DNA of 63,316 bases, counting the filler, from Sphacelaria rigidula (lineage: Eukaryota), in the NCBI GenBank assembly GCA_964200075.2. It is 10 parts of 10 records of this genome, joined end to end, with 100 filler letters (N's around TTAATTAATTAA, not from the genome) between each part and the next. Parts side by side here need not be neighbours in the genome. Positions count along the whole stretch, not along the records: positions 50,735 to 56,975 come from CAXNAA020021286.1; positions 57,076 to 63,316 come from CAXNAA020021287.1; 8 more parts are not named here. One strand, 5' to 3'. Shown in pieces: positions 6,243 through 63,316 of the stretch (its first letter is position 1; each line of letters starts with the position of its first letter). Below the pieces are notes generated by a model. It made no database searches. It was not told where the DNA came from and worked only from the letters and a program-made list of their open reading frames with translations. The position numbers were made by a program, and so were the translations under genes.

Positions 6243-6342
6243 NNNNNNNNNNNNNNNNNNNNNNNNNNNNNNNNNNNNNNNNNNNNTTAATTAATTAANN
6301 NNNNNNNNNNNNNNNNNNNNNNNNNNNNNNNNNNNNNNNNNN
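6243..6342. other. Artificial assembly linker (N44-TTAATTAATTAA-N44); the same linker occurs at 12585-12684, 18927-19026, 25269-25368, 31611-31710, 37953-38052, 44294-44393, 50635-50734 and 56976-57075
   Basis: An identical 100-bp N-flanked spacer with stops in all six frames recurs every 6341-6342 bp. The contigs between linkers are 6242 bp then 6241 bp, consistent with size-sorted concatenation. Confidence 0.97.
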
Positions 6343-12463: not shown

Positions 12464-12584
12464 GACACTTTCTACGATAATAGCCCCCCCCCAAAACCAG
12501 CGAAAAGTGTCACGAAAAAAATGACCATGCAGCGCCTGATGTTCGGGTTCAGGATGCATCAAGCGCGTCATGTTGGCGCCATGG
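12464..12584 (+). mobile_element. MITE family D left half, cut by the contig edge
   Basis: Starts with the GACACTTTCTACGATA..CCCCCCC terminus; the body matches 17892-18140. Confidence 0.8.
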
Positions 12585-13362
12585 NNNNNNNNNNNNNNNN
12601 NNNNNNNNNNNNNNNNNNNNNNNNNNNNTTAATTAATTAANNNNNNNNNNNNNNNNNNNNNNNNNNNNNNNNNNNNNNNNNNNNTAACTGCTGCGGACAT
12701 TTGGGGGGAAAGATAGCTTCGCTCGGTCGTAAGTGTTTCGCGTCATCCCTGCAAAAGAGAAATGCCACGTTAACCTCATTTTTGAGATGGACCATTTTCC
12801 AGGATCCACTGTTAATAGTTGAGCTTGTTGCTACAGTGCACCCAAGCTACCTGAGACAGGCCTGTCTTGCTGTATGCAGTGACTGGTAGTGGTTTCAGCA
12901 GCACCAACACAGGTGGTTTGTCCTGTGAATGGCACACAAGTATATCTGTTTTTTCGGAATTCTTCACAGCTCGCGATAAAAACGAAAGCCAAGCACCGCA
13001 GAAGGAAGAAGGTGGAGTACTAGAACAAATAAAAAAGAACAATCTGTCTTGTGTGACCCCGGCTGGTGCTCCCACATATATACCGAAAGGTGTGGACTGG
13101 CATCCAGAGTAAATGGGATGACAAGAAACACACACACATGCGGCACATATTTCAAACTTGCGATGCGGACCTCGAGATGTACCGTGTTATGCTTGTCCCA
13201 TGATGCTAAACGGTAGAATGATTGTGCGATGCTTAATGAATCACGCTGCACGCACGTTGCAAGCGTTTTCACCAAATGGCGGCCGCACACACATTCGGTC
13301 GACGCAGCTCCACCCCACCCTGTTTCACATAAGAAGTGCAATACGATGACCATCCAACCTAC

Positions 13363-14582: not shown

Positions 14583-16743
14583 ATGACCGGCACAGCTGCA
14601 CCCTCTGTTACTCGGCATCATGGGCGGGCATCCTCTTCCTCTGCGGATAAGCTACTGCTTGATTGCTGCAAGGCGATCAGGAAGGAGTCGACTTGGACGC
14701 AGCGAAAGCTTCGCCAGGCTTGCGACTGGGCGATACGTGAGTAGATTAGTATATAGTAACAATGAGAGTTGCAACACCGCGAGAGAGCGTCATCTTGGTT
14801 GTATGTTCTGTACCGTACATCTGTCGAATGTAGTATCAGTGTGTCCCTTCATGTTCAAACTGTTGGAATACGTCACGCATGACCTCATTTGTGCGCCACG
14901 ACCAGGGCTCATTCCAAATCCCTCAAAGATACAGAATTTTTCACGGGATTCCGCCCGGGAGTGTGCCCGTCCCACCGGTTCATGAGAATTGGTCGGACTC
15001 GCGTGTTCTACATTATCTATTCGCTTCAAACCCTGGACAATATATGGTCATCAGATTCAATACACCAGAACTATGCTGGGTTAAGCCTTAGACACGAGCG
15101 TCGCCTCGGAGTAGTTGCACAGGCTGACAGTCCTGAGACATTCGAGGGTTTCCAGTGGCCGGGGGGGGTGGGTTTTTTTGGGGGGGGGAACGCCTGTCCG
15201 CAGAGGAGTCAAAAAGCTCACCAAGTCAACCATGTGTGTTTGAAAGTTTCCTGCGGAATATTATGAGCCGTGCAGGAGGCCTGAGAGGCGCGGGATGCCC
15301 ATTCTGACCAATCACGGTCGTCAAAATGAGTGGAGTGCAGCAGTACTGTGTGCCAGACCGGGGCTTCCTCCTGCCCAGACTGCATTGAACGAGCAGCTGT
15401 GCTGACTTACTGAGGGTGCGCAATATCCGACGATGGAAATGGAAACGAACATTGAACATTGCGATGGAAGATACGCCGTGCACTTTCCCATTTGAAGATT
15501 ATGACATTTGGAAAATTTGCATGTTGTAGAAGACGTGTGAAAATGGGGGGAATGATGGAAAGTTGAGGACAACTATACTCATACGTGTTCATGGTACAGT
15601 AGATGCACGTCCGTGACAGTTATGCCGGCCACCATATTTACCGTACAGAAGCACACACGGTATGTATGGAAATATGGCACTCAAGCCATGTCGCGGACGC
15701 TTGAGGCGCACTAGAGTGAGTGAACGTGTAGAAATGGGTTACGTTCAAAGTAGGCCGATGATTACACTGAAGTTGTCCGCTTACACTGAAGTTGTCCGCT
15801 GTTTGTCGATGCCACGTGAGCGCAGATGAATTGGAACGAGGCCAGCACGCGGGAGCAGGATTGGCCCGGTACTATCGCGTGGTGGATTTGGCGTTGAAAT
15901 CATCCTCGGAAGATCTGGTGGAAGCCACGTTGCCACAGCTTCAAAAACTAATAGGTTAGGGGGGGTTTTGCTGTTGATTCATTTTGTATTCTTGTTTGAG
16001 CTGAGGACTTGTTCATTGCTTTGGTATCTTGCCGCGAACAGTGCCGGGAAAAAGAAAAAAAAATGTGCTGTAGCGCTTGTTGTTGCCGTACTATGAGCGC
16101 GGTGGTACCGTGTGAAGCCCATACTTGGGTATTTATGTTCACCTTTATATTCCATACTCAAAACATGCATATCACGGTATCGCAAAACGTTGGCGCTCGA
16201 CTCTTGCAGGATATCCCGTGGCAAGTCTGCGGTGTTTCGGGGGGCGAGGGGAGGAGAACGGTCGTTTGGAAGTATTTTCCGCCCACACCTTTTTACCACG
16301 CACGCGTGCGTGTCGCTTTTTTTTATAAAACACCGACCAAATCACAGGCACTCCGAGTTTTTCCTAGTCCCTTCACACACAAATTCCGCACCGGGCTGAT
16401 CATGCACCACTTGTTCCACACTGGCGTTTCGTATACACGGCACATACGAACATGTATGTATGTATTTGTGTGCGTGTACCGTTATTTTCCAACATGCAGA
16501 TTTTTTTCGTTTGTAATCGCGTGTGTATGTGGTCTCCTTTTGCCGACTGATAATGAAACAGCGGGGGGTCTGATCCCTCGAGGCATGGTAACCACGCTCG
16601 ACGACGGTACCACAGTCACCCTCGCAGACACCGTGGTGGACGTGGTGTTGGAAGCGGGAGCCGCCGACCAAACCGTGCGGCGAGGCGGGCGTGCGCAGGC
16701 GGTGAGATGCCTGCTGGCTTGTGTGGCATCTCCGGAGATCCAG
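14583..16743 (+). CDS. 5' exons of a DCB-domain protein (BIG/Sec7 ARF-GEF or MON2-like); exons 14583-14736, 15826-15954, 16562-16743
   Basis: GT-AG junctions with compatible phases (1,1,0) splice to ...KAIRKESTWTQRKLRQACDWAI-HELERG...RYYRVVDLALKSSSEDLVEATLPQLQKLI-AGGLI...AQAVRCLLACVASPEIQ. This parallels the BIG1 DCB motifs LRKACEVAL, LDCLQKLIAYG and IIKALLTAVTS. Downstream exons were not resolved. Confidence 0.8.
15155..15330. repeat. Intronic dispersed repeat; second copy at ~16846-17025
   Basis: Both copies share AGTCAACCATG.GTGTT.GAAAGTTTCC.GCGGAA.ATTAT.AGCC and CCATTCTGA.CAATCACGG..TCAAAATG, and both are preceded by G-tracts. Confidence 0.75.
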
Positions 16744-17891
16744 GTGAGATTTTCACAGCAAGCGTCGCCTCGGAACAGATTCACAGGCTGGCGATTGTTG
16801 CAATCGGCTAGTGTGAGATAATCAATCAATCAATCGATCGATCAAGTCCGGGGACATCCGGGGGGGTGCAGAGGACGGGGGGGGGCTGTTCGCAAAACAG
16901 CCGAAAAACTTGCCGAGTCAACCATGCGTGTTGAAAAGTTTCCCGCGGAAAATTATAAGCCAGTGACGAGACCCGAGAGGAGCGGAGTGACCATTCTGAT
17001 CAATCACGGCTATCAAAATGGTCACTTTATTCCCCTGCAGGTGGACGACAGGTGGGCGGACTACTTCGCTGTCTAGCCGTATTTCTCGTTTTGGTCATGG
17101 CAATTTAACCAAAAATAACACGGACGCAAATAACGTGCCTTTTGTACTCTGCTCGTGGTCTATGCTGCCTGCCTGGCCCTCATGTGCTGCCAGTACAGCT
17201 TCATACTGTCTGCAGTGTTATTTTGGAAGACTTGACAGAGACGTCAGCAGCATCCAGCTCAGTGGAGAGCGATCGCACGCTGATTTTTTTCTGTCGTTTG
17301 TGTCCAGCGGAGACATACCGCGCACATACTGGCTCTGCACGCCATTGACTGCAGGGTCAAAACCGGTCAGGGGTTCTCGGGGACTTTCTTCTATTCAGAT
17401 GCCCCAACATGTACGTGTGTGTTAAAAAAAGACATTTTGTGTGACGAGAAAAGAGCCGTTTGGAACCCCAAATGTGACGGAGTCCATCTGAGTCCATGTG
17501 AGGGGGGTTCGCGTCTAAGGTCAAGGGTACATGCCGAAGTTTGACTCGAGAAGGTACAGAAAAAGTGAAAGTTATCCATGTGTTTATACAGAGAGAGGAA
17601 TACGTCATTTTTAGGATACATACATCCTCCAGCTATGGGCCGGTGAAGGGCGGGTTCAAGGGCGCGTTTCATTTTTTCTCGTCCCCTCTTCCAGCTTTTC
17701 CGTGGGCGCGTCTTCACGCGTAGAACGGATACACAGAGATCGTCATAGTATAAGTGGAGTAGAAGAATATGTGCTGACGTGCTTCCCCCCCGGCAGGAGG
17801 CTCCAACTCTGGAGCTCTTGTCCCATGAATCGGCTGCATCTGAACGACTATCGCTAGCTGTCAAATATCGAGTGGAAGTAATGTCAATTTT

Positions 17892-18140
17892 GACACTTTC
17901 TACGATAACCCCCCCAAAAAACCAGTGTCATGGAAAAAATGATCGTACAGCGTCTGATGTTTGGGTTCAGGCTGCATGAAGCGCCTCATGTGGGTGACAT
18001 TGGCGAGAACGAACCCAAGCCTGGGAATTCCCAGCTGCTCGTTGTGCTCGATTTCCTCCATTTCGATTTACGCGAACATTTTGCCCCCCCAAACCAGGCA
18101 CTCTTGTGAGGGAGGGGGGGGGGCTATCGTAGAAAGTGTA
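17892..18140 (+). mobile_element. MITE family D (249 bp) with 4-bp TSD TTTT
   Basis: TTTT|GACACTTTCTACGATAACCCCC...GGGGCTATCGTAGAAAGTGTA|TTTT. Confidence 0.9.
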
Positions 18141-18693
18141 TTTTCCAGTTAGACATACCCGGGCGCTCGAAGCGGCTGTGAACGGGTTGATGTACAATCG
18201 GGGGCAAGTCGTGGATGTACTGTGCAAAGTGTGGCGGCTGTGGTTCTTGATTTTCCGTCCACGACCTTCGTTGTTCGCTGCTCTGCAGCAGTTGTCCCTC
18301 CCGCCTATCTTCTTCCCGCCGTCGCCCCCGCACCCTGCGAAGCTATACCATGCGCAGTTTTATCGGGTGTTGGTGTTTGCCATGGAGTACTACGCGTCGA
18401 GGCAGGGCAACCGTTGAACACTGTGCAGACGAAGAACTGAATACTGCTGTACCACACGCAAAAAACAGCGGTAAGCGTAGTGGCAAAAATAACCCTCTTG
18501 TGGCGTACAATATACATCGTGCTGGGAATGCACAACAATTCTCACAAAAAGACGGTCGGAATGTGAAGATGTGATTTCCTCGATTGACAATTGTGGGAAT
18601 TGTGCCCTCCTATCTGGTATCATAGTATCCACAGAAATCCTATTTTCTTTTCCATTTTACTCCGTCTCGTTTGAGAAAGAGTACGCCCATCCA

Positions 18694-18926
18694 GGGAGGG
18701 GGGGGGGTGTACTCATGATCATGTATGCCATAGTCGTAGGACCATTGGCCTCGCATCCCTTCAAAGCCGGGATGGAGCACCACGGGTTTTCGCCGGACCA
18801 GGCTCGCGATCAATCACCAAGGGCCAAGCGCTGTGGTATGTTCGGCGAGTCGCACGAAGGGTGAACTGCATCCTGCCAAGATTGTTCGGCGCGAAGCGCA
18901 CTGACTATCTTGCAGTTGGATGACCG
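18694..18926 (-). mobile_element. 3' part of the poly(C)-tailed SINE-like element
   Basis: On + it reads as a G-run followed by GTACTCATGATCATG.ATGCCATAGTCGTAGGACCATTG.CCTCGCATCCCT; colinear with 41132-41350. Confidence 0.85.
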
Positions 18927-24903: not shown

Positions 24904-25268
24904 TAGCCTGGTCCGGCGAAAACCCAGTGTGCTCGGTCCTGGCATTGTAGGAGCGGACCCCCTATAGGATTGGCATCGCTTGGCGATGACGCTGTACAAT
25001 CCGCCACTCACTGCGTAAGCTAGGCAACCAGCTTACCGATTTGTTTTGCGCGCTTTTTTTACGGTAACCATGATGGTGGTCGAGCTAGATCATGTTGTGC
25101 GGGGTGGGATAATCTTAACTCCAAGCAAAGGGGATGATCGTACTTCGTGGTGTTTAAATGGTGAGACATCCATGAGGCAGTATATAAGCCGTGGCTGTCT
25201 CTGGAAGTAGCAATAACAGAAAATGAAGCAACTCGCTGGAGGCTGTCATCCAAATGCAAGATAATCAG
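24904..25268 (+). mobile_element. 5' part of the poly(C)-tailed SINE-like element
   Basis: Starts TAGCCTGGTCCGGCGAAAACCC after a C-rich flank; colinear with 31268-31610. Confidence 0.85.
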
Positions 25269-25368: not shown

Positions 25369-25429
25369 TGACCTCACATCCCTACAAAGCCGGGACGGAG
25401 CACGCCGGGTTTTCGCCGGACCAGGCTCG
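25369..25429 (-). mobile_element. 5'-truncated SINE-like copy abutting a G/C run
   Basis: TGACCTCACATCCCTACAAAGCCGGGACGGAGCACGCCGGGTTTTCGCCGGACCAGGCT followed by a G-run at ~25431-25448. Confidence 0.85.
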
Positions 25430-26471: not shown

Positions 26472-29400
26472 TGTAGCCAAATACCAAGCCGTAGGTTTCA
26501 CTATAATCGCATGCATGATTGGAGCAGTGGCAGGAGACAGGGGATCCTGGATTGATGACCCTTATCTGCGTGGCCCCTTGTTGTCTGGCTCATGATGTGG
26601 TCTGTTTCGGGATCACTCCTTGATAATAACAAGGGAGAAGAAAGGACCTGTCGAGCACGAGGCCAGTGCTACTGGAGGAGTCCCTCGTGGATAGTCCTTT
26701 TGTCCAGATCGTCTGGCAGAGGCTACAATATCTAGATATTATTCTTCCGGCACTCTGTTACATGAGTTTGGCTGAGGAGGTAGTGGGCCGCAGCTGAGAG
26801 CCGGTTTAGCCCGCAGACAGGAGGAGACCACCTTGGAGCGCACAGCAGTGGAGGACGCTCCGTGAGCTGGAGGACGCACAACTCAGCCAAGAGTCTCTCC
26901 GTCAAGTGTTTGAAGCATAGACGACATGGCTCAAGCAGCGGCAGCGCCGCTGGTGTTGGGTGAGCCACTAGAACCGCCCAAGAATGGCGAAGTGTGGACA
27001 GAAGAGGCATCACGCGTTTTTTTCGCAGCATGTCTTGAATACATACAGCATTGGATTCTCCCGGATTCACAGGGTATCGTGAGGCATGAGAGGGTGAGGA
27101 TAGGTCATCTTATCCCTACCTATATTCATCGATGCTTCGAAGATATGTACAAGGACCGTCGGGCTATGACCCCCGACGAATTGCTTATGCTGTGAAGCAG
27201 CATGCCGGGTACACTACAACTGGCGGAAAGCATGCCGCTACGCGGACTGCAGCAGACCTGCGTGGAGTTCTTATTACGGACAAAGCAGTGGGAAATGATG
27301 GTCAGTTCAGCTATGGAAAGGTTCTTCTAATAAAACCTGACGGTGCAAGCCATGTACCGTGCGGAGGACACGAGTTGGTTGCCAGGCCTGGCCGAGTCGG
27401 TTTCCATAGCTTTGGTGGACGGGATTTCGCCCCCGGAATTCAAGGCGTATGTCAGAAGTGTACAAACGTATGGTGACAGCTGGAAAAAGAACCCGACGGT
27501 GGTGTTCAAAAAAATATTTGAGGCGGCCGACTAGTGGAAGTTAATTGAAGCACATAGCCGGCGCGATTCTCCAACAAGTGCAGGTGGTACGCGCCGCAAA
27601 CAGCAACAGCGACAGAAACAGCAGCCGTCTTCGCGAGCGTCGTCCATTCGCGCGTGTTACAACTGCGGCGACACCGGACATATGATCAAGTACTGCCCCA
27701 AGCCTCGCGCTCAAGGCGCTGCACAGGGCAATGCGCGAGATTCATCAGGATCTCGGGGCGGTCGTCACGGTGGACGGGGCCGTGCCAATTAGGGACGCGG
27801 GCGTGGCGGCCGCGGTAGCAAGCAATCGGCGGCGGATGGTGCTTCCTCCGCTGCTGGTTCTCCCACCACGTCATGAGGTGGTGACTCTGGATCTTATGGT
27901 TCGTCCGTAGCGGGGTGGACAGTGCACGTGGGAAATGCAAATTCTTCGGTGGGGAGTGCTGGAGCGAATAGCTCGCAACCCCTCGGCCAGTCAGGATCCG
28001 TGTCTGGTGCATTCCCTACTGCTGCGACGGCTGTAACAGCGCCGTCTCTGCATATTCGGCGACTTGGTCTGGTTAAACCGACGATTCGCAGCTATCGATG
28101 TCAAGTGCTGGAGGGCAGCCCTGGCGTCAGGTGACTCTTGGGACAGAACAGGGCTCTTCGGCAGGCGTGGTACCTGTCGATCGCAAGGTTGAATGCTTAC
28201 GCGCAGATTTATCCTTGCCTTGTTCTGTAGGTTCGTTCATGGCCCGCGTTATTCTGGATTCTGGGTCCGCTCTCACGTCGATCGGTGTGGGGTTACTTGA
28301 GCAAGTGTCTTCGCAGTTTGGCGGCGCTCAGCTTCAGATTCCGTTCGAAAACGGACCGCACACGACGCAGACCGCCACGGGTGCTCCCGTGACGGTTACA
28401 CACAAAACGGTGCCGATTACTGTAGGCGTGCGTACGCCGTGGGGGGCTGTGGAGTTGCAGCTCATTGCTTTCGCTGCCATGCCCGGTAGGGACAACGTGG
28501 TTCTATTTGGGATGGCGGCGATGAAGGAGCTTGGGATTGATTTGTATCCGCTGGCGTTGGAGAAGCTTCGACCGCGTGCTGTGCCGGTGCAAACCGGCGT
28601 GGAAAACCCTAGTTACCTTGCTGCAAGGCGTGTGATCGTATCCATACGGCCAGTCCAGAGCGCCAACAAGGAGGAGGCTCCTGCTGATGAAGCGGTAGAG
28701 CGCTTGGTCGATCGCGGGCCCGACATGTTCATGAACCCAGCGGGGGAAACAGGTGCCAGAAAACGTGCAATTGAAGATAGAGTGCAGCTGGCCGAGCAGA
28801 AGGGTCTGAGCGCCGATGGCGCACATTGTCTGCGCGATAATTTGGCTCGTCGCGTAGATACATTTCGTCGTGCGCCGCGTGGTGATCCGCCAGCGCGCGT
28901 GGAGCAAATGAAGGAGGCTGTGAAGGACAAGCCTCGACGCTGCGATCCGGTGAAGACCGTGTGGCTTGCTTCATGCATCGCAGCTTTGGTGGCATTTGGT
29001 TTGTTGGTTAGGAATATTCAGGCTGTGTGGGCGAGTCCGGCCATGGCGGTGCCGAAGAGAGACACATTACGTTTGGTCAGCGACTATGAGGCGGTGAACG
29101 CGCAAGTGGAACAGTCTCCGGGGGTGGTGCCAAGCCAAGGAGACATGCGGGAGTTACTTGGAGTCCAACAACAATATCGGTATGTCATTGAACACGTTCC
29201 TGGAGAGCACAATTGTTGGGGAGATCTGTTGTCTCGCTGAGTGAAGCCCCCTACCGTGCCTGTTCGTTCTGTTGCCATGTACAGCCCGTGTGATGCCGAT
29301 GATTCGCTGCCTTCGTTTGATGTCATCGGTACCGCGCAGCGCAAAACGGTCGGCGGCGAAGTTCATTTTTTTTCTACAACTTTCGGTCGAGCTACGTTGG

Positions 29401-31210
29401 CTGACGATGGTTTGTTTCGCGTGCGTGTTGGCAGTAGTAATATTTTGTGGATTCTGTCGGATGATAAGGCTCTACAATCTCGCTCGATGGTGTGCGCTCA
29501 CATGCGGTCGGGCTGGTCACCGTGGTGTGGCGCCGACTCTGTTTCGTTTGAATGAATACTGTGTGTGGCCTCCCATGGATTCCCACGTTCGCGAGTTCGT
29601 TTGCCAGTGCTTGAATTGTGTAGACACTCGTGCTGGTGAGATTGTACCTCGTCCGTATGGCGATACTGTGCATGGTGCTACGTCAGGTGAAGTTGTTCAC
29701 TTTGATTTTCTGTCCGTCGGAATTAGCGGACCTGAAGGTGCTAATGGTTTGCCCGAGGAGGATGGTTTTCGGTACGTTTTGGACATCATGGATGATTTGT
29801 CCAATTTCGTTTGGTTGAAGCCAACCGAGGTTTGGACTGCCGATGTTACGGTTAAGCACTTGCTCCATTGGTGCAGGACTTTGGGAGTGCCACGTGTTTG
29901 GGCTAGTGATACCGCCACGCACTTCAAGAATAGAGCGATCGCGCAGCTGAGCGATGCGCTCGAGGTGCAACACCAATTTGCTGTTGCGTATACCCCTTGG
30001 TCGAATGGTGCTTGTGAACGCATGGTGAAAGAGTTTATTCGTGCGTTGCGGTCTATTTCGTCGGAACAGCGATGGCTGGTGTCTGTATGGGTTGATGTTT
30101 TGCCAGCCGCTCAGTGGGCGTTGAATACTTTTTTTGGTGAACGCTACCGTAACACTCCGTATTGTGTGATGTTCGGGCGTACGCCGCGTACAGCGTTTTC
30201 CGCGCTGGATCTGTCACTGGCGGCGAGTGGAACATCGATGTCATGGATGCTGATTCGTTGCCTGACAAGGTTCGAGGCATGGTTGACGAGCAAGTGCGGT
30301 TTTGTAACGAAGTGCACGCAGCTGGCGCGGTGTCTTGCGAAACCAATCGCAAGCTTGCTCAAGGCCAGGCTGTGTTGCCCAGGTTTGCAGTTGGCGATTT
30401 CGTATTGTATGCCCGTGTTCGTATGCAAGGTGTGACGCCAAAGTTGATGTCCACGTGGACAGGTCTGTGGCGAGTGGTCGGAGCCGACCACGCTCACGTG
30501 TATTCGGTGCAGAACATTGTTTCTGGCGCCGTGCACTTGGCCCATGTCGCTCGTTTAGGTTTCTATGCTGACTCGCAGTTGCAAATCACTGCGGAACTAA
30601 AATATGTATTTCAGCATTCGTATGCTCAAGGTGAATGTCGCATGAATGCTTTGGTGCACGTCGCTGAGGATGACAATGGTGATGTCATTGTTTTGGTCGG
30701 TTGAGAAGGGTTCGGTGCTGAAGAACGTACGTGGGAGTCTCTTCGCAAGATTCATTCTTCTGCGCCTGAATTTATCTTGAAGGATCTGCGTAAAATGCGG
30801 TTGACTCGGGCGCTGACCAGTAAATTAGCGTCGGAGTATGGTATTTCCTTGTGATCTGGCGCATGCGATTTCGCCTTGTTTTTGTTGGTTGTCAAGCTCT
30901 TTCGTTGTCTTGAACTCGCTTTGAGGGTGCTGTAGCCAAAGCTGTAGCCAAAGCTGTAGCCAAATACCAAGCCGTAGGTTTCAGTATAATCGCATGCATG
31001 ATTGGAGCAGTGGTAGGGGACAGAGGATCCTGGATTGATGGCCCTCATCTGTGTGGCCCCCTGCTGTGTAACTCATGATGTGGTCTGTTTCTGGATCACT
31101 ACGCGATAATAACAAGCGAGAAGAAAGGACTTGTCGAGCACGAGGCCAGTGCTACTGGGGGAGTCCCTCGTGGATAGTCCTTTTGTACAGATCGTCTGGC
31201 AGAGGCTACA
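26472..31210 (+). mobile_element. Ty3/Gypsy LTR retrotransposon with chromodomain, decayed and missing most of RT/RNase H
   Basis: 256-bp LTRs TGTAGCC...GGCTACA at 26472-26727 and 30955-31210. Gag knuckle CYNCGDTGHMIKYC at ~27655, protease ILDSGS, the RT start (WASPAMAVPK..LRLVSDY), integrase HHCC plus VHFDF/ASDTATHF/NGACER, and a C-terminal VLVG*EGFGAEERTWESL chromodomain. Contains stops and frameshifts. Confidence 0.93.
26926..30853 (+). pseudogene. Disrupted gag-pol (Gag-ZnK, protease, truncated RT/RNase H, integrase, chromodomain)
   Basis: ORF pieces 26926-27195, 27343-27534, 28098-29240, 29272-30435 and 30162-30704 are joined by in-frame stops and frameshifts. Confidence 0.88.
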
Positions 31211-31267: not shown

Positions 31268-31610
31268 TAGCCTGGTCCGGCGAGAACCCGGCGTGCTCCG
31301 TCCCGGCTTTGTAGGCGATGACGCTCTAAAACACGCCTACCACTACGTAAGCTAGGCGACCAGGTTACCGTTTTTTTGGGGGCGCTTGCGGGTTTTTTGC
31401 GGTAACCACGATGGTGGTCGAGCTAGATCATGTTGTGCGGCGTGAGAGAACCTCAACTCTGCACAATGGGGATGATCATTCCACGTGGTGTTTAAATGGT
31501 CAGGCACCCATGAGGCAGTGTATGAGCTGTGGCTGTCTGAGGGAAAGGCGATACCACAAAATAAAGCAACTCATTGTAGGCTGTCATCCAAATGCAAGAT
31601 AATCAGTAGG
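31268..31610 (+). mobile_element. 5' part of the poly(C)-tailed SINE-like element
   Basis: A C-rich flank (~31236-31262) is followed by TAGCCTGGTCCGGCGAGAACCCGGCGTGCTCCGTCCCGGCTTTGTAGG...GGCTGTCATCCAAATGCAAGATAATCAG. Confidence 0.88.
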
Positions 31611-31897: not shown

Positions 31898-32156
31898 TAC
31901 ACTTTCTACGATAGCCTCCCCCCCCCCGCCAAAAGTGCCTGGTTTGGGGAGGCAAAGTCTTCACGTAAATCGAAATGGAATAAGCCGAGCACAACGAGCA
32001 CCTGGGAATTCTCACGCTTGGGTTCGTTCTCGCCAATGTCGCCCATATGAGGCGCTTCATGCAGCCTGAACCCAAACATCAGGCGCTGTATGACCAGTTT
32101 TTTCGTGACACTTTTGGGCTGTTTTTTTTGGGGGGGAGGCAATCGTAGAAAGTGTC
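31898..32156 (-). mobile_element. MITE family D (259 bp) with 4-bp TSD ACTT
   Basis: ACTT|TACACTTTCTACGATAGCC...GCAATCGTAGAAAGTGTC|ACTT. Confidence 0.9.
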
Positions 32157-37654: not shown

Positions 37655-37892
37655 TACACTTTCTACGATAGCCCCCCCCCCCCAAAACCACCCCAAAAGT
37701 GTCACGAAAAAAATGATCATACAGCGCCTGATGTTAGGGTTCAGGTTACATGAAGCGCCTCATATGGGCGACATTGGCGAGAACGAACCCAAGCGGGGGA
37801 ATTCTCAGCTGCTCGTTGTGCTCGGCCTTTTTCATTTCGACTTACGTGAACATTTTGCCTCCACAAGCGAGGCATTTTTCGGGGGGGGGGGG
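37655..37892 (+). mobile_element. MITE family D copy whose right-hand G-tract is interrupted by a LINE 3' tip (37893-37952)
   Basis: Starts TACACTTTCTACGATAGCCCC. The G12 run is followed by CGTACTCA.TTGTTGCTTGC instead of CTATCGTAGAAAGTGT. Confidence 0.85.
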
Positions 37893-38052
37893 CGTACTCA
37901 ATTGTTGCTTGCTTTAGTCGTTTGATCATTGACCACGCATCCCTTTCGAGACNNNNNNNNNNNNNNNNNNNNNNNNNNNNNNNNNNNNNNNNNNNNTTAA
38001 TTAATTAANNNNNNNNNNNNNNNNNNNNNNNNNNNNNNNNNNNNNNNNNNNN

Positions 38053-38240
38053 CTGATAATCTTGCATTTGGATGACAGCCTACAATGAGTTGCTTTATTT
38101 TGTGGTATTGCCACTTCCAGAGACAGCAACGGCTTATACACTGCCTCATGGGTGTCTAATGGGGGCGGGGTGGGCGTACTCATTTGTTGCTTGCCTTAGT
38201 CGTTTGACCATTGACCACGCATCCCTTTCGAGACGGAGCA
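38053..38240 (-). mobile_element. SINE-like fragment (38053-38154) adjacent to a LINE 3' tip (38175-38240), separated by a G-tract
   Basis: Both match the other copies. G-rich tracts lie at 38161-38174 and ~38246-38263. Confidence 0.85.
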
Positions 38241-39171: not shown

Positions 39172-42100
39172 CTTTTTAAGTCCAGCGGTCGAGGCGTACT
39201 CCCGGCTGCTGCTCCCATCGCTCGCGCTCGCGACCACCCCGGTAGCGTTCCCGCCTTCCACGCTTCCTCAAAATCATCGTCGGTTGTGCTCAGCACCTTT
39301 CTCACCCCCCCCCCCCACCCCCAGAAATCGAAAGTTCAGAAATGCAAAAGCAAGAGAAATCTTTCAACTTCATTGCCCCGCCGGGCGACAGACCTCTTGT
39401 CGGAACATATCATTGATCTTCAACATCGATTATTCTGACGTTGCAGCTGAGCAGCTCCTCTCTGTCTCTGATTATACAACGAAAGCAGCTTCCCTTCATC
39501 TCAGTGGACAACCTAGGGCCCATCTGAGCAGGTTCGACACCCACGGGGTTCCAGTCCTGGGTTTCTGTTCCAATATTTTGTCCGTTGACAGAGTCCCACG
39601 AGTTTCAGGAGGATGGTTCTTGTAGGCGTGGATGGACGCTAAACGGAGATACGCGGTTTGGCAGGAGTGACACAAAACTCCAACTCAAGCCAAAAAGGCA
39701 TGCCGCAACACGTTGGCATGGTTGAGCGAGCAACGTTCACGTTTTTGGTTAATGCACAATTCTGCGATGGATGCTCATGTCCCCGTACACGCGAAACCAC
39801 ACACATATATATATATATATATATTGGTGTGCTCATCGACTACTGTGTTTTTTTGTTGTTATTGCTGTTACTGCTCTTGTTGTTTGTTATTTGGTGGTGG
39901 TGTTGTTGTTATTGTTGTTATCGTTGCTTCCTTTCTTTTTTCGTTTCTGTGGCTGTTGTTTCAAGCGTTTCTGTTTCTTTCATTCTTTAATTTTTCTCAT
40001 CCTGTTTTTTTTTGCTGCTCCTGACCACGGGCTGGGTTGTTGCAATCAGCTAATGTGAGATAATTAATCAAGCATGATCTGCGACCGTTATATGCTGCCG
40101 ATCGTGGCTTTCACGCACGAGTAACAAGCTGCGTGGCACATGCGTAGCAATGATATCATTTTGTGCAGGCTGCAGGCAGTGTTTCTCCACCGAAAAAAAA
40201 AAGTTCCGAACTCCTCACAATCAGCGCGTAAGCTTTGCGTCCCAATTTTCAACAGCGGTTTGAGCGGTAGAAGGGTTGAGCCCATGAGAGAAACTGCATC
40301 AGCGAACGACCACGTGAGCAGTGGGAAAGTATGAAGGCTCTGACTGTTGACATATCGTTGTTTTGTCTCCATGACTTCCTGCGGGAAAGCGCGAGTGTGT
40401 TTGTGCTGCAAGGCTGCTTCAATTCGTGTAGGTCGCCGAATCAAATCAAGAGCACCAACTGGAAAACGGTAGAATAACACCTTGCCGCGGCAAACGTACG
40501 CATCGACAGCTGTTGGCTACTAGTGGAGTTTACAAGGTTTTTCGGTCACAGGCCATTTTGTACGCTGTGGGGGGAAATGGAACGACAAACACGGTAATAA
40601 CCCCAAGTATTGTAGACACGCAAGTGTACACAAACGCGCACATGACAACTCAGAGAAAATAGATATACCAACCTAAGAAGGGCTATGCAACATGCAGGAA
40701 TTGACTGACACAGCAATGACTTGGTCTAGTACACCCCCTACTTCGAGCTGCCGACGGTGGCAACCTACCGAAGATCCTTGGGACAGAGTATGATAGTCTA
40801 GGTATTCAGTACTTCCAGAGTATTTTCGGCCTTACTACCCTCGGGTACCTGAAGAATCCATGGCCGAAAATCCTCACTGTTATCAGAGTATCGCCTGCCA
40901 AAAACACCAGGTAATCCGCAGCACCTAGAGTATCGCCACCTCAAATTACTCGTACTCGCACCCTACCCTATCTCAAGCATCTAGTAGAGACACCTCGAAC
41001 ATTTTGGTGCTCATTACGTTCTTTCCATACACTATGAAAAAAATATTTTGCATGTCTTATCCCCGTCCTGTTTCGCCCTCTGTGACCACGATCCATCTCC
41101 TAGTATATCCTCATAAAAGGGGAGGCGGGGCGTACTCATGATCTTGCATGCCATAGTCATACGACCGTCGACCTCGCATCCCTACGAAAGTCGGGACAGA
41201 GCACGCCGGGTTTCCGCCGGACCAGGCTCGCAATCTATCACCACGCGCGAAGCGCCTTGGTCTGTTCAGCGAATCGCATGAAAGGTGAGCTGCATCCTGC
41301 TAAGATTGTTCACCCCAAAAAGTACAGATTATCTTGCATTTGGATGACAGCCTCCAACAAGTTGCTTCCTTTTCTGGTATTGTCACTTCCAGAGACAGCC
41401 ACGGCTTATACACTGCCTCATGGGTGTTTTACCAAAGAGGGGGGAGGGGGAGGGATAACGATATCACCTCACAGCAGAAGGAACCCCCACAGGTGTCCGA
41501 CAAGTTATCATCACTCTTTACAAATGAACACAATTCTCAACACCGACGACACCGACAAACGCCTCCCTGCCCCGGCCCTCGGCCGCAAAACGTTCTTCAA
41601 AGCAGTTTTTCATTCTTAGTCCCAGTTTTCCCCCCCTCCCGGATTCACCTCATCAAGATCGACGAGGGGCTGCGTGCGTTTGAGGAAGCTCGCCAGATAC
41701 TCCCGTAAGTCTTCCAGGAAGTGAGCGTACGCCTTTCCGCGGACCTGTTCAAACGTCCGAGCGCCAGATGACGTAACAGCACGGAGTGCAGTAAGTTACG
41801 TTTCGCGCGACAGTTTGAGAACCGTAGGTGAATAATCAGCAGGCACAATGAGAAGCAAGCGCGCCAACTACAGATCGTAATGCAGCCGCCACATTCCTGC
41901 AAGGTACTGCACTGTGCTGCACTGTGCTGCACTTGTCTCGTGCCTTTTTTCAATCTGACACTAATCCTAATCCCAACCAAGCCTAACCAATGCATATGGT
42001 GGGGGATGACAAAACACAGGGAATACGTGTGAGTGGAGTAGAGAGCAAGACGGAACATGATATTTGTTTCGTCATACTGTTTCCAAACCTTCACACCTTC

Positions 42101-50561: not shown

Positions 50562-50634
50562 AATGGTGAGGCACCCATGAGGCAGTGTATAAGCTGTGGC
50601 TGTCTCTGGAAGTGGCGATACCAGAGAATACAGC
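50562..50634 (+). mobile_element. 5'-truncated SINE-like fragment after a C8 run; another at 56873-56975
   Basis: AATGGTGAGGCACCCATGAGGCAGTGTATAAGCTGTGGCTGTCTCTGGAAGTGGCGATACC. Confidence 0.85.
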
Positions 50635-54000: not shown

Positions 54001-54838
54001 TCGCAAAGCGGGAAAATCCATTGACGCGGTAAGGTGAGGCATCCGCACCCCCCCCAACCCCTCCCTCCGGCATATGCCCCTGTGGCGAAGCGGTAGAGAC
54101 TATAACTCGTAGAGTGGGAGAATGTGAGCTACACAAGGAGGAACGGAAGGTGTTGGAGGATGAGATGAGGGAACTAAACGAGCGTGACATGGAACCGATC
54201 GGTACATGACATAATAGTATCGACAAAACAATCGCAATTCTGTACAGTGCTATAATAGGAGATAGACGGTAGCCACAGGCGGCGAAACAGGAAGGCGATG
54301 AGATACGAAAAAGGTCTTCCGTGCAAGGTACAGAAAAAGCGTAATGAGCGCCCAAATGTTGGAGGTGTCTACATCACGAGTAGAAACGGCGGTTCGTCTC
54401 GCAAGGGATGCGGGTCAATGGCGAAACGTCTAAGGCGAGCAATAAATGAGTAACCCCCCCCCCCCCCCCCCCCCCACCGTCTCGAAAGGGATGGGTGGTC
54501 GATGGTCAAATGACCAAGGCAAGCAACAAATGAGTACGCCCTTCCCCCCCTTCCCTTCCCGGTCATATTTTTCGTGTCTTGTACTAGTTTTTCCTTCGAG
54601 CTGTACGTACCTTTTTTTATTTATTAATTTTTCCGCTGTCGGGTGTTTAGAACCTCGCCATTTGGGGCGCCGTGTTTCCCTGACCGTGGGTGTATATGTC
54701 ACTTTCCCTCGCATTCTGTCTTCATGTGCCATAGCTTTGTGACCGCGGGTGCTAAAGTTCTGGAAAAGGGCTAATGTGAGAAACGACATATACCTGCCGC
54801 TGCTGGCGCTCTCGCTCCTTCTTCTCCATGGCCTCCCT
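51091..54838 (-). CDS. Charged (E/K/R/Q) helical repeat protein; microexons 54838-54794, 53825-53781, 51174-51091
   Basis: AG|REAMEKKERERQQRQ|GT, AG|REAMEKKEKEQREKQ|GT and AG|LALERKEKERREKQAALERKAQERLERQ|GT. All are phase 0, and the copies differ partly by synonymous changes. Confidence 0.78.
52642..53059 (-). mobile_element. Degenerate family-C MITE carrying an inserted repeat (~52870-52975, also at ~58810-58910)
   Basis: Termini CAACCTTGTGTTC and GAACACAACCCTTG; internal GTACCCGACA repeats. Confidence 0.7.
54071..54560 (+). mobile_element. LINE 3' fragment (54071-54453) with C22 tail, followed by a second 3' tip (54477-54538) with a C-rich tail
   Basis: Translates to CPCGEAVETITRRVGECELHKEERKVL...IGDR..PQAAKQEGD..NERPNVGGV, homologous to 60353-60770(-). 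It ends AAATGAGTAA + poly(C). Confidence 0.88.
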
Positions 54839-55332
54839 CTGGAGAAAAGAAAATAAAAGAAGAGAAGAGTCCACCGAGCGCCCACAACCAACCGCACGGC
54901 ACGGCACGTCGATGATTTAACAGCAAACCAGGCGGGGAAAACAAAAACATCGGAAGAGGCATCCACGGGCAATGAGAGGGTGTTTTGACAGCCACCACCA
55001 ACCAAACCAGTACGAAACAGTGATACTGCTGCATGCGCAATCCATGCAGAAACCACAAGGGCAAGTGGTCGTAGACGTGACGAACGGAAGGGCAGCGAGA
55101 AACGAGGAGGATAGTAAAAAAAAAAAAAAATGGTTATTTCACTGATTGGTTGATGTCGTGATGACATGATGGTGACATGATGGACGTAAACGAGATAGAA
55201 AAAAAAAAAATCGCTGAAGAGCAATGAAACAAAAGCAGGAAGGTAGAAACAGACAGCATATTAAAAGAAAAAGAAAAGGAAACAAAACAAATAAATATCA
55301 GAACAAAAGAGTAAAAAATCATGCGAATTATG

Positions 55333-55870
55333 CAATGTCGCGTTCTGTAGGGTACGGTTTTCTGTATACCCGGGGTATTTTGCCGGGTGTTTACCGTACC
55401 CGACCGTTCTGTAAACTCTGTAAGACTTTCATACCGGTACCCGTTAGTTCTGTAAACTCTGTAAGACCTTCATACCCGAAACCGATAGTTGTGTGAGTTC
55501 TGTAGGCCGTCCGTATCGTTACCGGGGGGCACGAGTATGCTCTTGATATGATACCCGGTTGCGGGTACGGTTTTCTGTGCAACCTCCATACCCTACCCGA
55601 TAGTTTCTGTGAGTTCTGTAAGCCTCCCATACCCTTACCCGACAGTTCTGTGAGTTCTATACAGAATATTTACCCTAACCCGAGGGGCGGGTATGCCCTA
55701 GAAGAGTTACCCGATTGCCGGTACCGGTTTTCTGTAAGCCTCCCATATCGGTACCCGAGAGTTGCTTAATTTCTGTAAGACTTTCATACCGGTACCCAAC
55801 AGTTGTGGAAGTTCTGTTATGAATCTCATACCTTACAGAACGTACCCGTACCTTACAGAACACGATCTTG
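55333..55870 (-). mobile_element. Family-C hAT-like MITE (538 bp) with 8-bp TSD GAATTATG
   Basis: GAATTATG|CAATGTCGCGTTCTGTAG...TTACAGAACACGATCTTG|GAATTATG. Confidence 0.9.
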
Positions 55871-56101
55871 GAATTATGTGCAGATCTCTCAAAATGGGAG
55901 TAAGTCTTTTGCAAGCCATACTGTGATGTTTTTTACCACCCGCCTGCTCCCCAAAGACAGGTTGTGATTTGGAAAATGACTCTGGTTCGTTTCATAACCC
56001 TCTCATTTACGCCTCACACCCTGCGAGTTTTCTTTAACAACTCCGTCGTGCATTTGTCGTGAACAATCACGTAACCACTTGTTCACCCCCCTCAGGTAGT
56101 A

Positions 56102-56171
56102 TGCTCTGTCTCGAAAGGGATGCGTGGTCAATGGTCAAATGACTGAGGCAAGCAACAAATGAGTACGCCCC
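56102..56171 (+). mobile_element. LINE 3' tip (66 bp + C tail) with perfect 16-bp TSD CCCCCCTCAGGTAGTA
   Basis: TSD copies at 56086-56101 and 56172-56187. Confidence 0.92.
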
Positions 56172-57086
56172 CCCCCCTCAGGTAGTACAGTCCTTCAAGA
56201 ACTGGACATGAGACCATGTCGTTGTCAAGTCATGCCCTGGCGGGGAATCAAGATGAGGGCGACACGGAGGTAAATTTTGTTTTTCATTGTTGTCTGTAGA
56301 TTGCCCTGTGCCCAAGGCGCTTCCAATTTCGATTTATTTCGGTGTTTGTGACGTTGCGGTCTCGGAATTTCGGCGGTGGAACCGGAGTGCCCTCGGCTGG
56401 GCCCTTGTTGGAAGTGGTTCTAAAATGAAGGTCTTCCGCACGCACCCGGGGTATGGTGATGTGTCGTTGCACGGAAGCGAAAAGATGTATTGAAGCATAA
56501 ATCGTGTTCGTATTATCGCCGTCGCCCTACATTCGCAGGGGCACGCAGCAAGCCGGCGCTGAGGCGCGAGTCGTTTCCCGGAAAATTCCCGCCAGGTCGC
56601 CCCGCACCAGTCCCAGCCACTACCATGCCTGTTTTCAAGTACACGTACAGGACTTACTTTTCGGTATGCCATAGACTATGCGATATGCTTCCCGGAAGTA
56701 AGTTGCAACTGCTGTCTCTCGGGCAGACGGGTGACAACGTCAAGCGTCAAGGAGCTGCACGCGGAGCCGAGGGGTCCCATATCGGGAAATGACGGCACGA
56801 CCCCGCCCTCCCAGGTCGCCCAAACCTCATTCTGGGGCCGTAGGAGGGGAGGGGGGGCTACCCGTTTGTTATTGGTGAGACACCCAGGAGGCAGTGTGTA
56901 AGCTGTGGCTGTCTCTGGAAGTGGCGATACCAGAGAACAAAGCAACTCTTTGTAGGCTGTCATCCAAATGCCAGANNNNNNNNNNNNNNNNNNNNNNNNN
57001 NNNNNNNNNNNNNNNNNNNTTAATTAATTAANNNNNNNNNNNNNNNNNNNNNNNNNNNNNNNNNNNNNNNNNNNNGGTGTGGTGTT

Positions 57087-57221
57087 CGTACTCATTTGTT
57101 GCTTGCCTTGGTCATTTGACCATTGACCACGCATCCCTTTCGAGACGGAGCACGGGGGGAGTGAAGGAGGGTGGGGCTTACTCATTTGTTGCTTGCCTCA
57201 GTCGTTCGACCATTGACCACC
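57087..57221 (-). mobile_element. Two tandem LINE 3' tips separated by a G-rich tract
   Basis: TACTCATTTGTTGCTTGCCT..GTC.TT.GACCATTGACCAC occurs at ~57089 and ~57179. Confidence 0.85.
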
Positions 57222-60340: not shown

Positions 60341-61290
60341 GGAGTTGGGAGCGTATTCATTCGTTGCCTGCCTCAGTCATTTGACCATCAACCACGGATC
60401 CTTCGCGAGACAGAGCACCGCCCTTACTCCTAATGAAGACAACTCCAACATTTGGACGCTCACTACGTTTCCGTGGTACACAAAACCTTGTACCCTTAGC
60501 CGTTTCGCCGCGTGTGGCCACCATCTATCTCCTAGTATAGCGAATGTTTTCTCGCTACTGTCTTATTCACCAAACGGTTACATGCCACCTTCATTTACTT
60601 CCCACAATTCCCCGTCTCACACGTCCCGTTCCTCCTTGTACAGTTCACATGCTGCCGTTATATGAGTTCTACTTTCAATTACCTTGCCACAGGAGCAATT
60701 CTGTGCATCTACTTCCTCCTCCATCCGATTACTGGTATACCTCTTCCCTCTGGCAGGTCAAGGTCCCGATTCGAAATCGCAGTTTTAAATTTATCGCCGT
60801 GCCCATTGGGTCATGCAGATATGTTTTCATCCCTATCCCATCTCTCAACCCCCCGTACACCTTCAGGTGCTCTTCCCCGTCCACTTTTCATCATAGCGCC
60901 AGTTTTTACCTTCTCCCTGTGTTTTCGTGTACGTACGTCGTACATCCCCCACATTCACCCATGAACATTATCTCGTCTTGGTTTCCTCTCATATCCTCAT
61001 ATACTGTCTCGACTACATTTTCTCACCTTATTCCAGCCTGCCGTTTCCATAATTCCATCCATGCACACCTAGTAACTATGGTTGACAATATCGTCCTCGG
61101 CATGTTCCTCACGACGTATTTCCGTGTCAATTGTGCCATTTCTCTCTATTTGTTTCAAGTGAGTACATTCTCACTACTCTATCACTCGTCGTTTTGAAGC
61201 ATCCAAATTTTCTAAGCTGCTGTCATCTGCACTGTTTCTTCCAGCTTCTCCCCCAGCTTTGCGTTCCGTTCTCATGCCCCTTCATGTTTT
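60341..61290 (-). mobile_element. Decayed 5'-truncated LINE (RT thumb to C-terminal zinc knuckle, RTEX-like)
   Basis: Minus-strand translation with stops and frameshifts: NAKLGEKLEETVQMTAA*KI...HLKVYGGLRDGIGMKTYLHDPMGTAINLKLRFRIG...CSCGKVIESRTHITAACELYKEERDV...ERPNVG. It ends in the shared 3' tip with a decayed C-rich tail. Clade assignment is by motif resemblance only. Confidence 0.85.
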
Positions 61291-62706
61291 GGTACCGGTA
61301 CAACGGCATCCATCAAAATACATATCTTAATCCTAGTATCGAGGTCCGAGCCTCGTAGGATCAAGTCCACCTTACCCGTCTGTGTCTTACCCTTTCCTCT
61401 TTCTTTATCTGTGTGTGCACTCGAAGAATCATTTTCTACATCTCTACGCCAAGGTATGTACACAACCAAGAGTCAGACGGGGACGAAAATGAGGGGAAAA
61501 AACAACTACACACACACACAATCAACACACTCCACGTCAGTCTCCACCCCCAACACATGCCCGAAAGCCAGTCCTTAACAGTCCCCTCTCTCAAGCACTC
61601 ATCAGTCCCGGTTTTTTAAATACGCCTCCTTCCACGTAAGCCCAAATATGTACTTCGCATATATATATATATATTGTTGTTCATCTGACTGAAAGAAACA
61701 ATGGTACATACAAATCATCAAATGCGAAATCCTGTTGTGGTTTGGCCATCAGATACCTGCCACAAGCACCAAATTGGCATGACACTACAGGGAAGCATCT
61801 TAAACGCCCCGGCTTTGATATACATATTCTGTTCTGAAATATTGCTTTCATCCGAAATGGCGCGCGGATCTGGATACAAGGAAGAACCAAGATATGGAGC
61901 GCAAATAATGTTGAGCTACAGATATATAGATTGCGAGAATTATCGTTTTTGACATTTTGATTTACAAGAAGCTCATAGTTGTAGTTGGTTGTTAGGCCCG
62001 ATACCATTTTCGGTTACACAGCTTCTTGCCGTTTGAAGCCTCACTACGGAGGCGCGACAGATTTTGTGGAATCATACCTTCGCTGCTTCCTGTTCTCCTT
62101 CACCGATCCGCAGGTACAGTTCATGAGTCTGAGCATGCTCGAGAACAATGGCTCTATCCTCCGGTACAAGACTAGCCATCTTGTGTCAAAAAAACAAAAC
62201 TGCTCCCTACGATATCATCTGCTAGACCTGTGCTTCCTAGTGGAGAAGGAGACAGGCACTGCGGTGCGGCTCGTGTTTGTACACGACTATAGAGTAATGC
62301 ATGGGTAGCTGTTATTTTCAATTATCAAGCTGCTCAGATAACCTCTTTCTCGCTCCTCTGTGAAATCGTAGGCCACTTGACTATAACTTCAAAATTGGTC
62401 GTAGTTTTCAAAATAGAAGTCAGTCATCACCCGTGTGTCGTTTCACACGAAAATATTAAACAGTCCAAAAGCATTTTCAGCAGTTAATCAAGTACGCGTT
62501 GACCTTCCTGCACACACGTTATTTCCCAAACACTTCCGTGACTCCACCTACCCCTCCCTCCCGAGACCGTGATTTGAACCCCGAATCGATTCACTACTGT
62601 CCTGGCAAACGTAACCCTTATCCCGTGGGGGGAGGTTCGAGCCAATTTTCGAACGAACGAGCTAATTGAGAGAGTCGATGCAGGCAGCAGATTTCATGTG
62701 AACCAT

Positions 62707-63265: not shown

Positions 63266-63316
63266 GAGGGGGGGGGGGAGGGAGGGGGGTACTCATGATC
63301 ATGCATGCCATAGTCA
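63266..63316 (-). mobile_element. 3' tip and poly(C) tail of the SINE-like element at the window end
   Basis: A G-tract followed by GTACTCATGATCATGCATGCCATAGTCA. Confidence 0.85.

Follow-up and report, generated by a model that had tools for sequence, protein, structure and literature searches.

A probable C-tailed LINE of the RTE-X kind and its short partner at C-runs in Sphacelaria rigidula contigs

The RNA of L1, a long interspersed nuclear element (LINE), bears a poly(A) tail at its 3' end, and the L1 target-site duplication (TSD) begins with a matching run of A residues. For the I factor and UnaL2, whose ends are (TAA)n and (TGTAA)n, respectively, the relevant passages of PMC3747384 describe a 3' repeat that is thought to act in initiation or in template slippage. 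In retroposons related to RTE, according to the corresponding passages of Nishiyama and Ohshima (2018, PMC6007223), the first nucleotide of the TSD correlates with the 3' repeat, a correlation suggesting that the choice of primer depends on the repeat of the RNA. Here we analyse a stretch of 63,316 bases from Sphacelaria rigidula (assembly GCA_964200075.2), called the window in what follows, in which a ~65-bp module recurs. We ascribe this module to the 3' end of a LINE of the RTE-X kind, with a single open reading frame (ORF) and an endonuclease of the apurinic/apyrimidinic (APE) type, which, along with a non-autonomous partner of ~310 bp, would insert at C-runs by oligo-G priming on its C tail. 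The probability of this reading is, in our estimate, about three in four.

Elements of this kind are on record in Ectocarpus. The 2025 Genome Biology paper on the transposable elements of this alga (PMC12477816) counts seven RTE-X families with 16,418 copies and notes that the 3' end of a non-autonomous element, RTEX-N1, is common to RTEX-1/2. In its Supplementary Material 3, RTEX-1_Ec32 bears the entry 'single EN-RT ORF; (C)n 3'' and its TSD is given as 'C-rich', and RTEX-2_Ec32 is described as '(C)n termini/TSD' (EN, endonuclease; RT, reverse transcriptase). Two non-autonomous elements are also entered: RTEX-N1, of 607 bp, which 'can be present in tandem' and is annotated '60 bp 3' end 83% RTEX-1/2', and RTEX-N2, of 188 bp, whose tail is similar. 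The words 'C-rich' and 'homopolymer' are missing from the main text of that paper, so the feature is catalogued there but left undiscussed. Phrase searches of the literature for a poly(C)-tailed LINE returned nothing relevant beyond this catalogue, and the relevant passages of the Phaeoexplorer preprint and of the Saccharina genome paper mention no such tails. An earlier, sequence-only reading of the present stretch knew of no described poly(C)-tailed LINE; the implied claim of novelty does not stand, since the entries for RTEX-1/2_Ec32 already give this tail and this targeting. The element adds one more member, apparently from another genome, to a kind that the brown-algal catalogue already contains.

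The 3' module and its C tail

The window is a pseudomolecule of ten contigs, ~6242 bp each (GC content 49.5%), with N44-TTAATTAATTAA-N44 linkers between them at 6243-6342, 12585-12684 and onward every ~6342 bases. Since the contigs are joined by linkers, features that seem to span one of these are not real neighbours. The main site lies on the contig at 50735-56975 and the following contig begins at 57076; several copies of the module are cut at contig ends. When the copy at 56102-56167 was used as query in a blastn search of the window, all eight ~65-bp copies listed in the sequence-only reading were recovered, at 37893-37952(-), 38175-38240(-), 54396-54452(+), 54479-54538(+), 56102-56167(+), 57087-57152(-), 57179-57220(-) and 60352-60417(-), together with two diverged matches at 41131-41203(-) and 18726-18761(-). 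The module as typed occurs at three places in the window with no more than 3 mismatches, compared to 0.00 expected.

Searching with a 19-mer of the module identified three true relatives, L001 to L003, in marine metagenome contigs; two other matches, L004 and L005, were chance hits of the 19-mer and were dropped. An intact 670-aa frame that contains RVT_1 and is open on its 5' side was found in both L001 and L002; it ends ...GAPSRKGCVVNGQMTKASNK (...NGQMTKASNK), after which come TGA, GTACG and a C-run. Because these frames end at the module, the module consists of the last 22 codons plus a 3' untranslated region (UTR) of 5 nt. The intact relatives thus confirm what had been deduced from the window copies, namely that the module is the very end of a LINE ORF and that only ~5 nt (GTACG) separate the stop from the C-run. 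P0273, a 1360-aa relative with 90% identity across the entire 670-aa query, was tested for the whole architecture and shows one ORF in which an APE endonuclease lies on the N-terminal side of RT. Its ~165 N-terminal residues precede Exo_endo_phos (APE; 170-392/414); RVT_1 (740-989) and a CCHC knuckle come next, before the shared C-terminus. The closest named proteins belong to Ectocarpus sp. CCAP 1310/34 (71-73% identical): P0008 and P0275 are 73% and 71% identical to the LINE, respectively, and the C-terminus of P0275 (...NGAPSRKGRVANGQMTTASNK) is the same as that of the LINE. Altogether, these data support the view that the copies derive from an APE-type LINE and hold the 3' end of its ORF together with a 5-nt 3' UTR.

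A Pfam scan of the 193 stop-to-stop frames of at least 90 aa in the window detected no RT domain, because the LINE copies there are too short or too decayed, and matched only the integrase of a long terminal repeat (LTR) element. ESM Atlas and PDB searches gave generic RT matches only, those in PDB being R2 and L1 ORF2p (E 1e-22 to 1e-17), which do not discriminate between clades. No match was obtained in a scan of viral contigs.

Fourteen 3' ends were scored, 11 from the window (8 of the LINE and 3 of the non-autonomous partner) and 3 metagenomic, for the presence of at least 8 C residues in the first 10 nt past GTAC(G/A). Twelve of them qualified (9/11 in the window and 3/3 in the metagenome), as compared to 456 of 124,704 background 10-mers (0.37%). 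Those that did not qualify are the old copy at 60352 (6/10 C) and the copy at 57087, where AACACCACACC follows and 11 nt are left to the contig end. Neither poly(A) nor any A-run follows the 3' end in any of the 14 copies, in agreement with the sequence-only reading, and membership of the L1 clade was rejected on this ground. The C tail cannot derive from polyadenylation, which leaves a template or addition by the RT as its source.

These observations are extended by contigs from four sequencing runs belonging to two studies (P1: X1, X4 and X5; P2: X3); all counts of loose ends given here and below are among the matches listed. At position 56177, loose ends occur in at least 276, 282, 162 and 89 contigs in the four runs, the counts taking in only contigs that already match C10, and the consensus adds 21, 18, 13 and 16 C, respectively, before diverging. 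The summed contig depth of the bin holding the module reaches ~4.2 million in X1, as opposed to ~60 in neighbouring unique bins; this figure is not a copy number and shows heavy repetition only.

The window copies were placed on L001, a metagenome contig whose 670-aa ORF served as reference, by tblastn and blastn. Two copies are long. The one read at 54071-54453 is real (54072-54453, +): it is an old, degenerate and 5'-truncated copy of the last ~120 ORF codons, from the CCHC knuckle to the stop, ending ...ATGAGTAA and 75% identical to L001 by blastn. Translated with X at the stops, it matched 174 related proteins, short and unnamed, with E<=0.001 in an exhaustive search; a word-based search with an 89-aa read-through fragment, limited to longer proteins, gave no match. 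The other long copy, proposed at 60341-61290, is real as well and spans more than was thought, occupying 60347-61463(-). It is a degenerate, 5'-truncated copy of 1.1 kb, ~72% identical to L001 over residues 305-671, with a decayed tail (CTCCCAACTCC). In tblastn, 54072-54533 corresponds to residues 552-671 of the L001 ORF and 60357-61427 to residues 305-671.

Some copies form head-to-tail pairs (54395/54477 and 57087/57177). In the first pair, the long copy is preceded by a C-rich flank (54046-54071, +; ...CACCCCCCCCAACCCCTCCCTCCGGCATATG), the putative left half of an imperfect TSD of ~28 bp; judged by eye only, and with single-base indels needed, it resembles the 3' flank CCCTTCCCCCCCTTCCCTTCCCGGTCATAT at 54539-54568. 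A C22 run (54454-54475, +) serves as the tail of this copy and as the upstream flank of the next, a 62-bp copy of the module lying inside the preceding C tail (54477-54538, +; ending ...TGAGTACG; 93% identity to L001 by blastn). A decayed C-rich tract (CCCTTCCCCCCCTTCCCTTCCC; 54539-54560, +) comes after it. The second pair consists of a 66/67-bp copy (57087-57153, -; 98.5% identity to L001), which lacks a C-run, and a 5'-truncated copy of 44 bp (57177-57220, -) preceded on the minus strand by C8-TCACG. The two are separated by a C-rich spacer (57154-57176, -) that reads CCCCACCCTCCTTCACTCCCCCC plus one flanking base on the minus strand. Elsewhere, a 66-bp copy (38175-38240, -) has C8-TCTGATC upstream and, downstream, CCCACCCCGCCCCC, which abuts the 5' end of the non-autonomous element.

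Truncation at variable 5' positions, also part of the sequence-only reading, is borne out by starts at reference positions 878, 1656, 1954/5, 1959 and 1977, but three short copies share one start. These 66-bp copies (38240, 56102 and 57153) have different flanks and an identical start base, which is where the similarity to the non-autonomous partner begins; the shared start could be a truncation hot spot or mark a minimal mobile unit.

Two other C-runs were observed in the window. A C41 run and further C-runs fill the last ~70 bases of a contig (44220-44293), and the preceding 120 bases are unrepeated elsewhere in the window; this tract may have arisen as the tail of a different element or as an end effect of assembly. 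A different repeat is present in two copies, 78% identical, at 15189-15313 and 16886-17005(-), both of which end at C9; it may represent a further family ending in, or adjoining, C-runs.

Target sites and the origin of the C-runs

The 66-bp copy at 56102-56167 (+), composed of the last 22 codons, TGA and GTACG and 97% identical to L001 by blastn, is flanked by the perfect 16-bp TSD CCCCCCTCAGGTAGTA, starting with C6, that the sequence-only reading had reported; the left half is at 56086-56101 (+) and the identical right half at 56172-56187 (+). Four extra C's (56168-56171, +) lie between GTACG and the right half. With C10 downstream and C6 upstream, they are the sole part of this C10 that is necessarily derived from the element or from slippage. 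This TSD and the varied 5' ends bear out the description of the copies as 5'-truncated, with the hallmarks of target-primed reverse transcription (TPRT). Loose ends before 56102 are present in at least 285, 240, 181 and 81 contigs in the four runs, where the consensus ends in the LINE's own upstream sequence. As to an allelic empty site, no contig joining across the 56102 insertion is among the joints listed for the four runs.

Upstream sequences were examined for a C-run of at least 5 within 25 nt of the 5' junction, or for at least 13 C among those 25 nt. The former is found at 11 of 14 junctions, usually 4-10 nt away, and the latter at 7 of 14, versus 1.36% of background windows.

A repeat that is distinct from the LINE tells what such a site looks like before insertion. 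This unit of ~260 bp has four copies, complete or cut (37656-37892, 31898-32155, 17893-18158 and 12468-12584), and has the layout ACACTTTCTACGATAG-C(n), then ~200 bp, then G(n)-CTATCGTAGAAAGTGT; ACACTTTCTACGATAG forms its terminal inverted repeats, so that one end has a C-run immediately inside it and the other a G-run. At 37881-37952 (-), the 3' end of the LINE, namely a module cut by the contig end (37893-37952) with a C12 tail (G12 on the plus strand, 37881-37892), takes the place of one terminal repeat, exactly at the boundary of the C-run. Six other terminal repeats that could be aligned, from units without the LINE, each retain C7-C12. Since these uninserted paralogous units carry the C-run, the latter predates the insertion, and the insertion point is the 5' edge of the C-run in the orientation of the element. 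These units and the 11 junctions uphold the proposal that the target side begins with a C-run.

The ~260-bp unit itself looks like a miniature inverted-repeat transposable element, possibly with a short A/T-rich TSD, and offers ready-made C-runs to the LINE. The combination '...ACACTTTCTACGATAG + C-run' had been considered as a third C-tailed retroposon; this was rejected, as it is the terminal inverted repeat of the unit.

Several observations weigh against insertion at C-runs by a C-tailed LINE of this kind. Three of the 14 5' junctions (61463, 41107 and 56873) have no upstream C-run, 56873 having G7 instead. Only one perfect TSD was identified, the others being imperfect or unreadable: the flank pairs 54046/54539 and 41427/41121 are similar by eye only, with the look of decayed C-initial TSDs, and the copy at 38240 shows no TSD beyond the C-richness of its flanks. 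The young copy at 57087 continues as AACACCACACC and not as C's, within the only 11 nt that precede the contig end. A search for a stable or covarying RNA fold in the module detected none (z = 0.01, with compensatory change at 0 of 20 predicted pairs). Finally, the RTE-X label would follow from the labels used in the Ectocarpus paper and from protein similarity to Ectocarpus.

The origin of the C's admits other explanations. An element could be tail-less, with an RNA ending ...GTACG; all the C's would then belong to the target, as the first part of a TSD that replication slippage had extended, and the endonuclease or DNA binding, rather than primer-template pairing, would account for the whole specificity. 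It speaks for this possibility that at 56102 the TSD accounts for all but 4 of the 10 C's downstream, and that the uninserted paralogous units already have C7-C12, the occupied one having C12. Yet the tails in the window reach C22, and the 13-21 C that the contig consensus adds past C10, in hundreds of contigs, exceed the C5-C12 found upstream of most junctions. Furthermore, a transcript of any copy would have to cross the C-run before meeting a terminator, and the RNA is thus likely to contain this run. We regard a tail-less element as unlikely.

Some reverse transcriptases add untemplated bases, and an RT adding G's to the nicked DNA end before engaging its template, whatever the target, would agree with a tail whose length differs among copies. 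Such an origin seems to us highly improbable: upstream C-runs lie 4-10 nt off the 5' junction, and at 56102 those nucleotides are duplicated downstream in TSD-like fashion; moreover, the C-run exists in the paralogous units that have no insertion. Lastly, the idea that no retrotransposition took place, with recombination spreading the module and its C-run in the manner of a satellite, or with artefacts of sequencing or assembly behind the C/G runs, could draw on the many copies at contig ends, the head-to-tail pairs and the frequency of C/G runs near contig ends, but is already largely refuted by the same junction recurring in three metagenome contigs of other assemblies, in contigs of four runs and two studies and in the Ectocarpus catalogue, by flanks that vary from copy to copy, by the perfect TSD and by intact EN-RT ORFs.

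The non-autonomous partner and other repeats

A full copy of the partner, ~307 bp long (41121-41427, -), ends ...ATGAGTACG-CCCCGCCTCCCC and has a C-rich upstream flank. Homology to the LINE module extends over its final ~70 nt, where both have the blocks TGCTC.GTC.CG, AGGGATGCG.GG, GACTA.GGCA and ATGAGTAC, and the C-run comes after. A copy comprising body and tail (18698-18926, -) ends ...ATGAGTACA-C10, and a 5' part is cut by the contig end at 56873-56975 (+). Other parts were found at 25369-25429, 63280-63316, 25164-25268, 31502-31606, 38053-38160, 50569-50634 and 1-66. With regard to a SINE-like head (SINE, short interspersed element), which would derive from a small RNA with a Pol III promoter, the head of the partner matched no Rfam family: a search of 41100-41520 gave only a chance-level snoRNA match (E 0.54), outside the element. 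Copies at 25090-25163 and 31430-31501 share ~70 more upstream bases (...GGGGATGATC.T.C..CGTGGTGTTTAAA), and the true 5' end of the partner may be further upstream than in the 307-bp copy.

LINE and partner also occur joined. The LINE module and its C-run lead straight into the partner head in at least 27 contigs of X1, 15 of X3 and 6 of X4, where the joints 56176/56177->56873 account for at least 8+19, 7+8 and 3+3 contigs, respectively; the LINE-then-partner order is also found in the window, at 38053-38240.

The sequence at the LINE end is unusually constant. Between L001 and L002, a single sequence pair, identity is 79% across 2,013 nt but rises to 97% in the 66 nt that immediately precede the stop. 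In these 66 nt, all 21 codons for the same residue are identical (21/21), as against 65% of 529 overall, and 2% of equal-sized windows match this value.

Other repeats populate the window. Degenerate 41-bp tandem repeats (TACCC..GTTCTGTAAG type) at 55392-55832 have a very high summed contig depth and thus constitute another abundant repeat family. An open frame at 29245-30432 (+), with integrase zinc-binding and integrase core domains, is part of an LTR retrotransposon; the adjoining 387-aa frame (28077-29237) has no Pfam match.

Proposed mechanism and comparison with known elements

We infer that the RNA carries the C's, where the nick is made and how the primer pairs, and propose the following sequence of events. 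The element would be transcribed through its own 3' C-run, and its protein would bind the conserved last ~66 nt, carried by the partner too. The endonuclease would then make a bottom-strand nick at the margin of a target C-run, and the oligo-G 3' end set free in this manner would pair with the C-run of the RNA and prime reverse transcription. A second nick, 10-30 nt downstream, would produce TSDs that start with the C-run. Every insertion would leave C-runs at both ends, so that later insertions would hit earlier tails and form head-to-tail clusters. The annealing of an oligo-G primer to the C tail is the simplest reading and a plausible one; it agrees with the rule relating TSD base to 3' repeat in RTE-related retroposons, as set out in the relevant passages of PMC6007223.

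A more demanding version of this scheme holds that the C homopolymer is a functional component of TPRT: the APE endonuclease nicks at the edge of a G/C homopolymer, the oligo-G pairs with a templated C tail, and the last 66 nt of the ORF, whose synonymous sites are conserved, are the whole cis signal. We see this version as evenly poised between right and wrong. It would explain the existence of three independent copies of exactly 66 nt. In the literature searched, the main text of PMC12477816 included, we found no test or discussion of a C-homopolymer mechanism in TPRT.

Polyadenylation cannot have produced the 3' homopolymer of this LINE, which makes the element a clean natural case for separating the pairing of tail and primer in site choice from the extent of 3'-end recognition. 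These two aspects are entangled in L1, and the present element, being abundant and having intact copies, makes the question testable. As the tail is already recorded for Ectocarpus, the value here is one of annotation. A C-tailed element also explains the breaks of contigs at C/G runs and at the module.

The closest known relatives are RTEX-1/2_Ec32, whose catalogued traits, a single EN-RT ORF, a (C)n 3' end and a C-rich TSD, are all present here. The family is nonetheless a different and diverged one: the best identity to Ectocarpus is 73%, over part of the query, and the catalogue elements are compared by description. Like RTEX-N1/N2_Ec32, which are entered with a tail of 60-100 bp in common with the LINE and a 5' part of unknown origin, the partner shares ~70 nt with its LINE and takes part in tandem arrangements; it differs from them in size, at ~310 bp as opposed to 607 and 188 bp. 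LINEs and SINEs of the RTE clade, as presented in the relevant parts of PMC6007223, are similar in that short repeats at the 3' end replace poly(A) and that SINE partners share the 3' end of the LINE. Their repeats are microsatellite-like, with a stretch of T's ~10 nt upstream of the TSD, whereas the present element has a C homopolymer as its repeat and a TSD that itself starts with the C-run. The I factor and UnaL2 resemble the present element in their non-poly(A) 3' repeat and stringent recognition of the 3' end, and differ in having repeat units of 3-5 nt; the relevant passages of PMC3747384 make no mention of a C homopolymer. The likeness to L1 is one of outline: a 3' homopolymer, a TSD starting with the same homopolymer, 5' truncation and the mobilisation of non-autonomous RNAs. 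In contrast to L1, poly(A) is present in 0 of 14 copies, the ORF is single, and a conserved 3' module is common to the LINE and its partner. This shared module points to a recognition of the 3' end that is stringent rather than relaxed, unlike that of L1.

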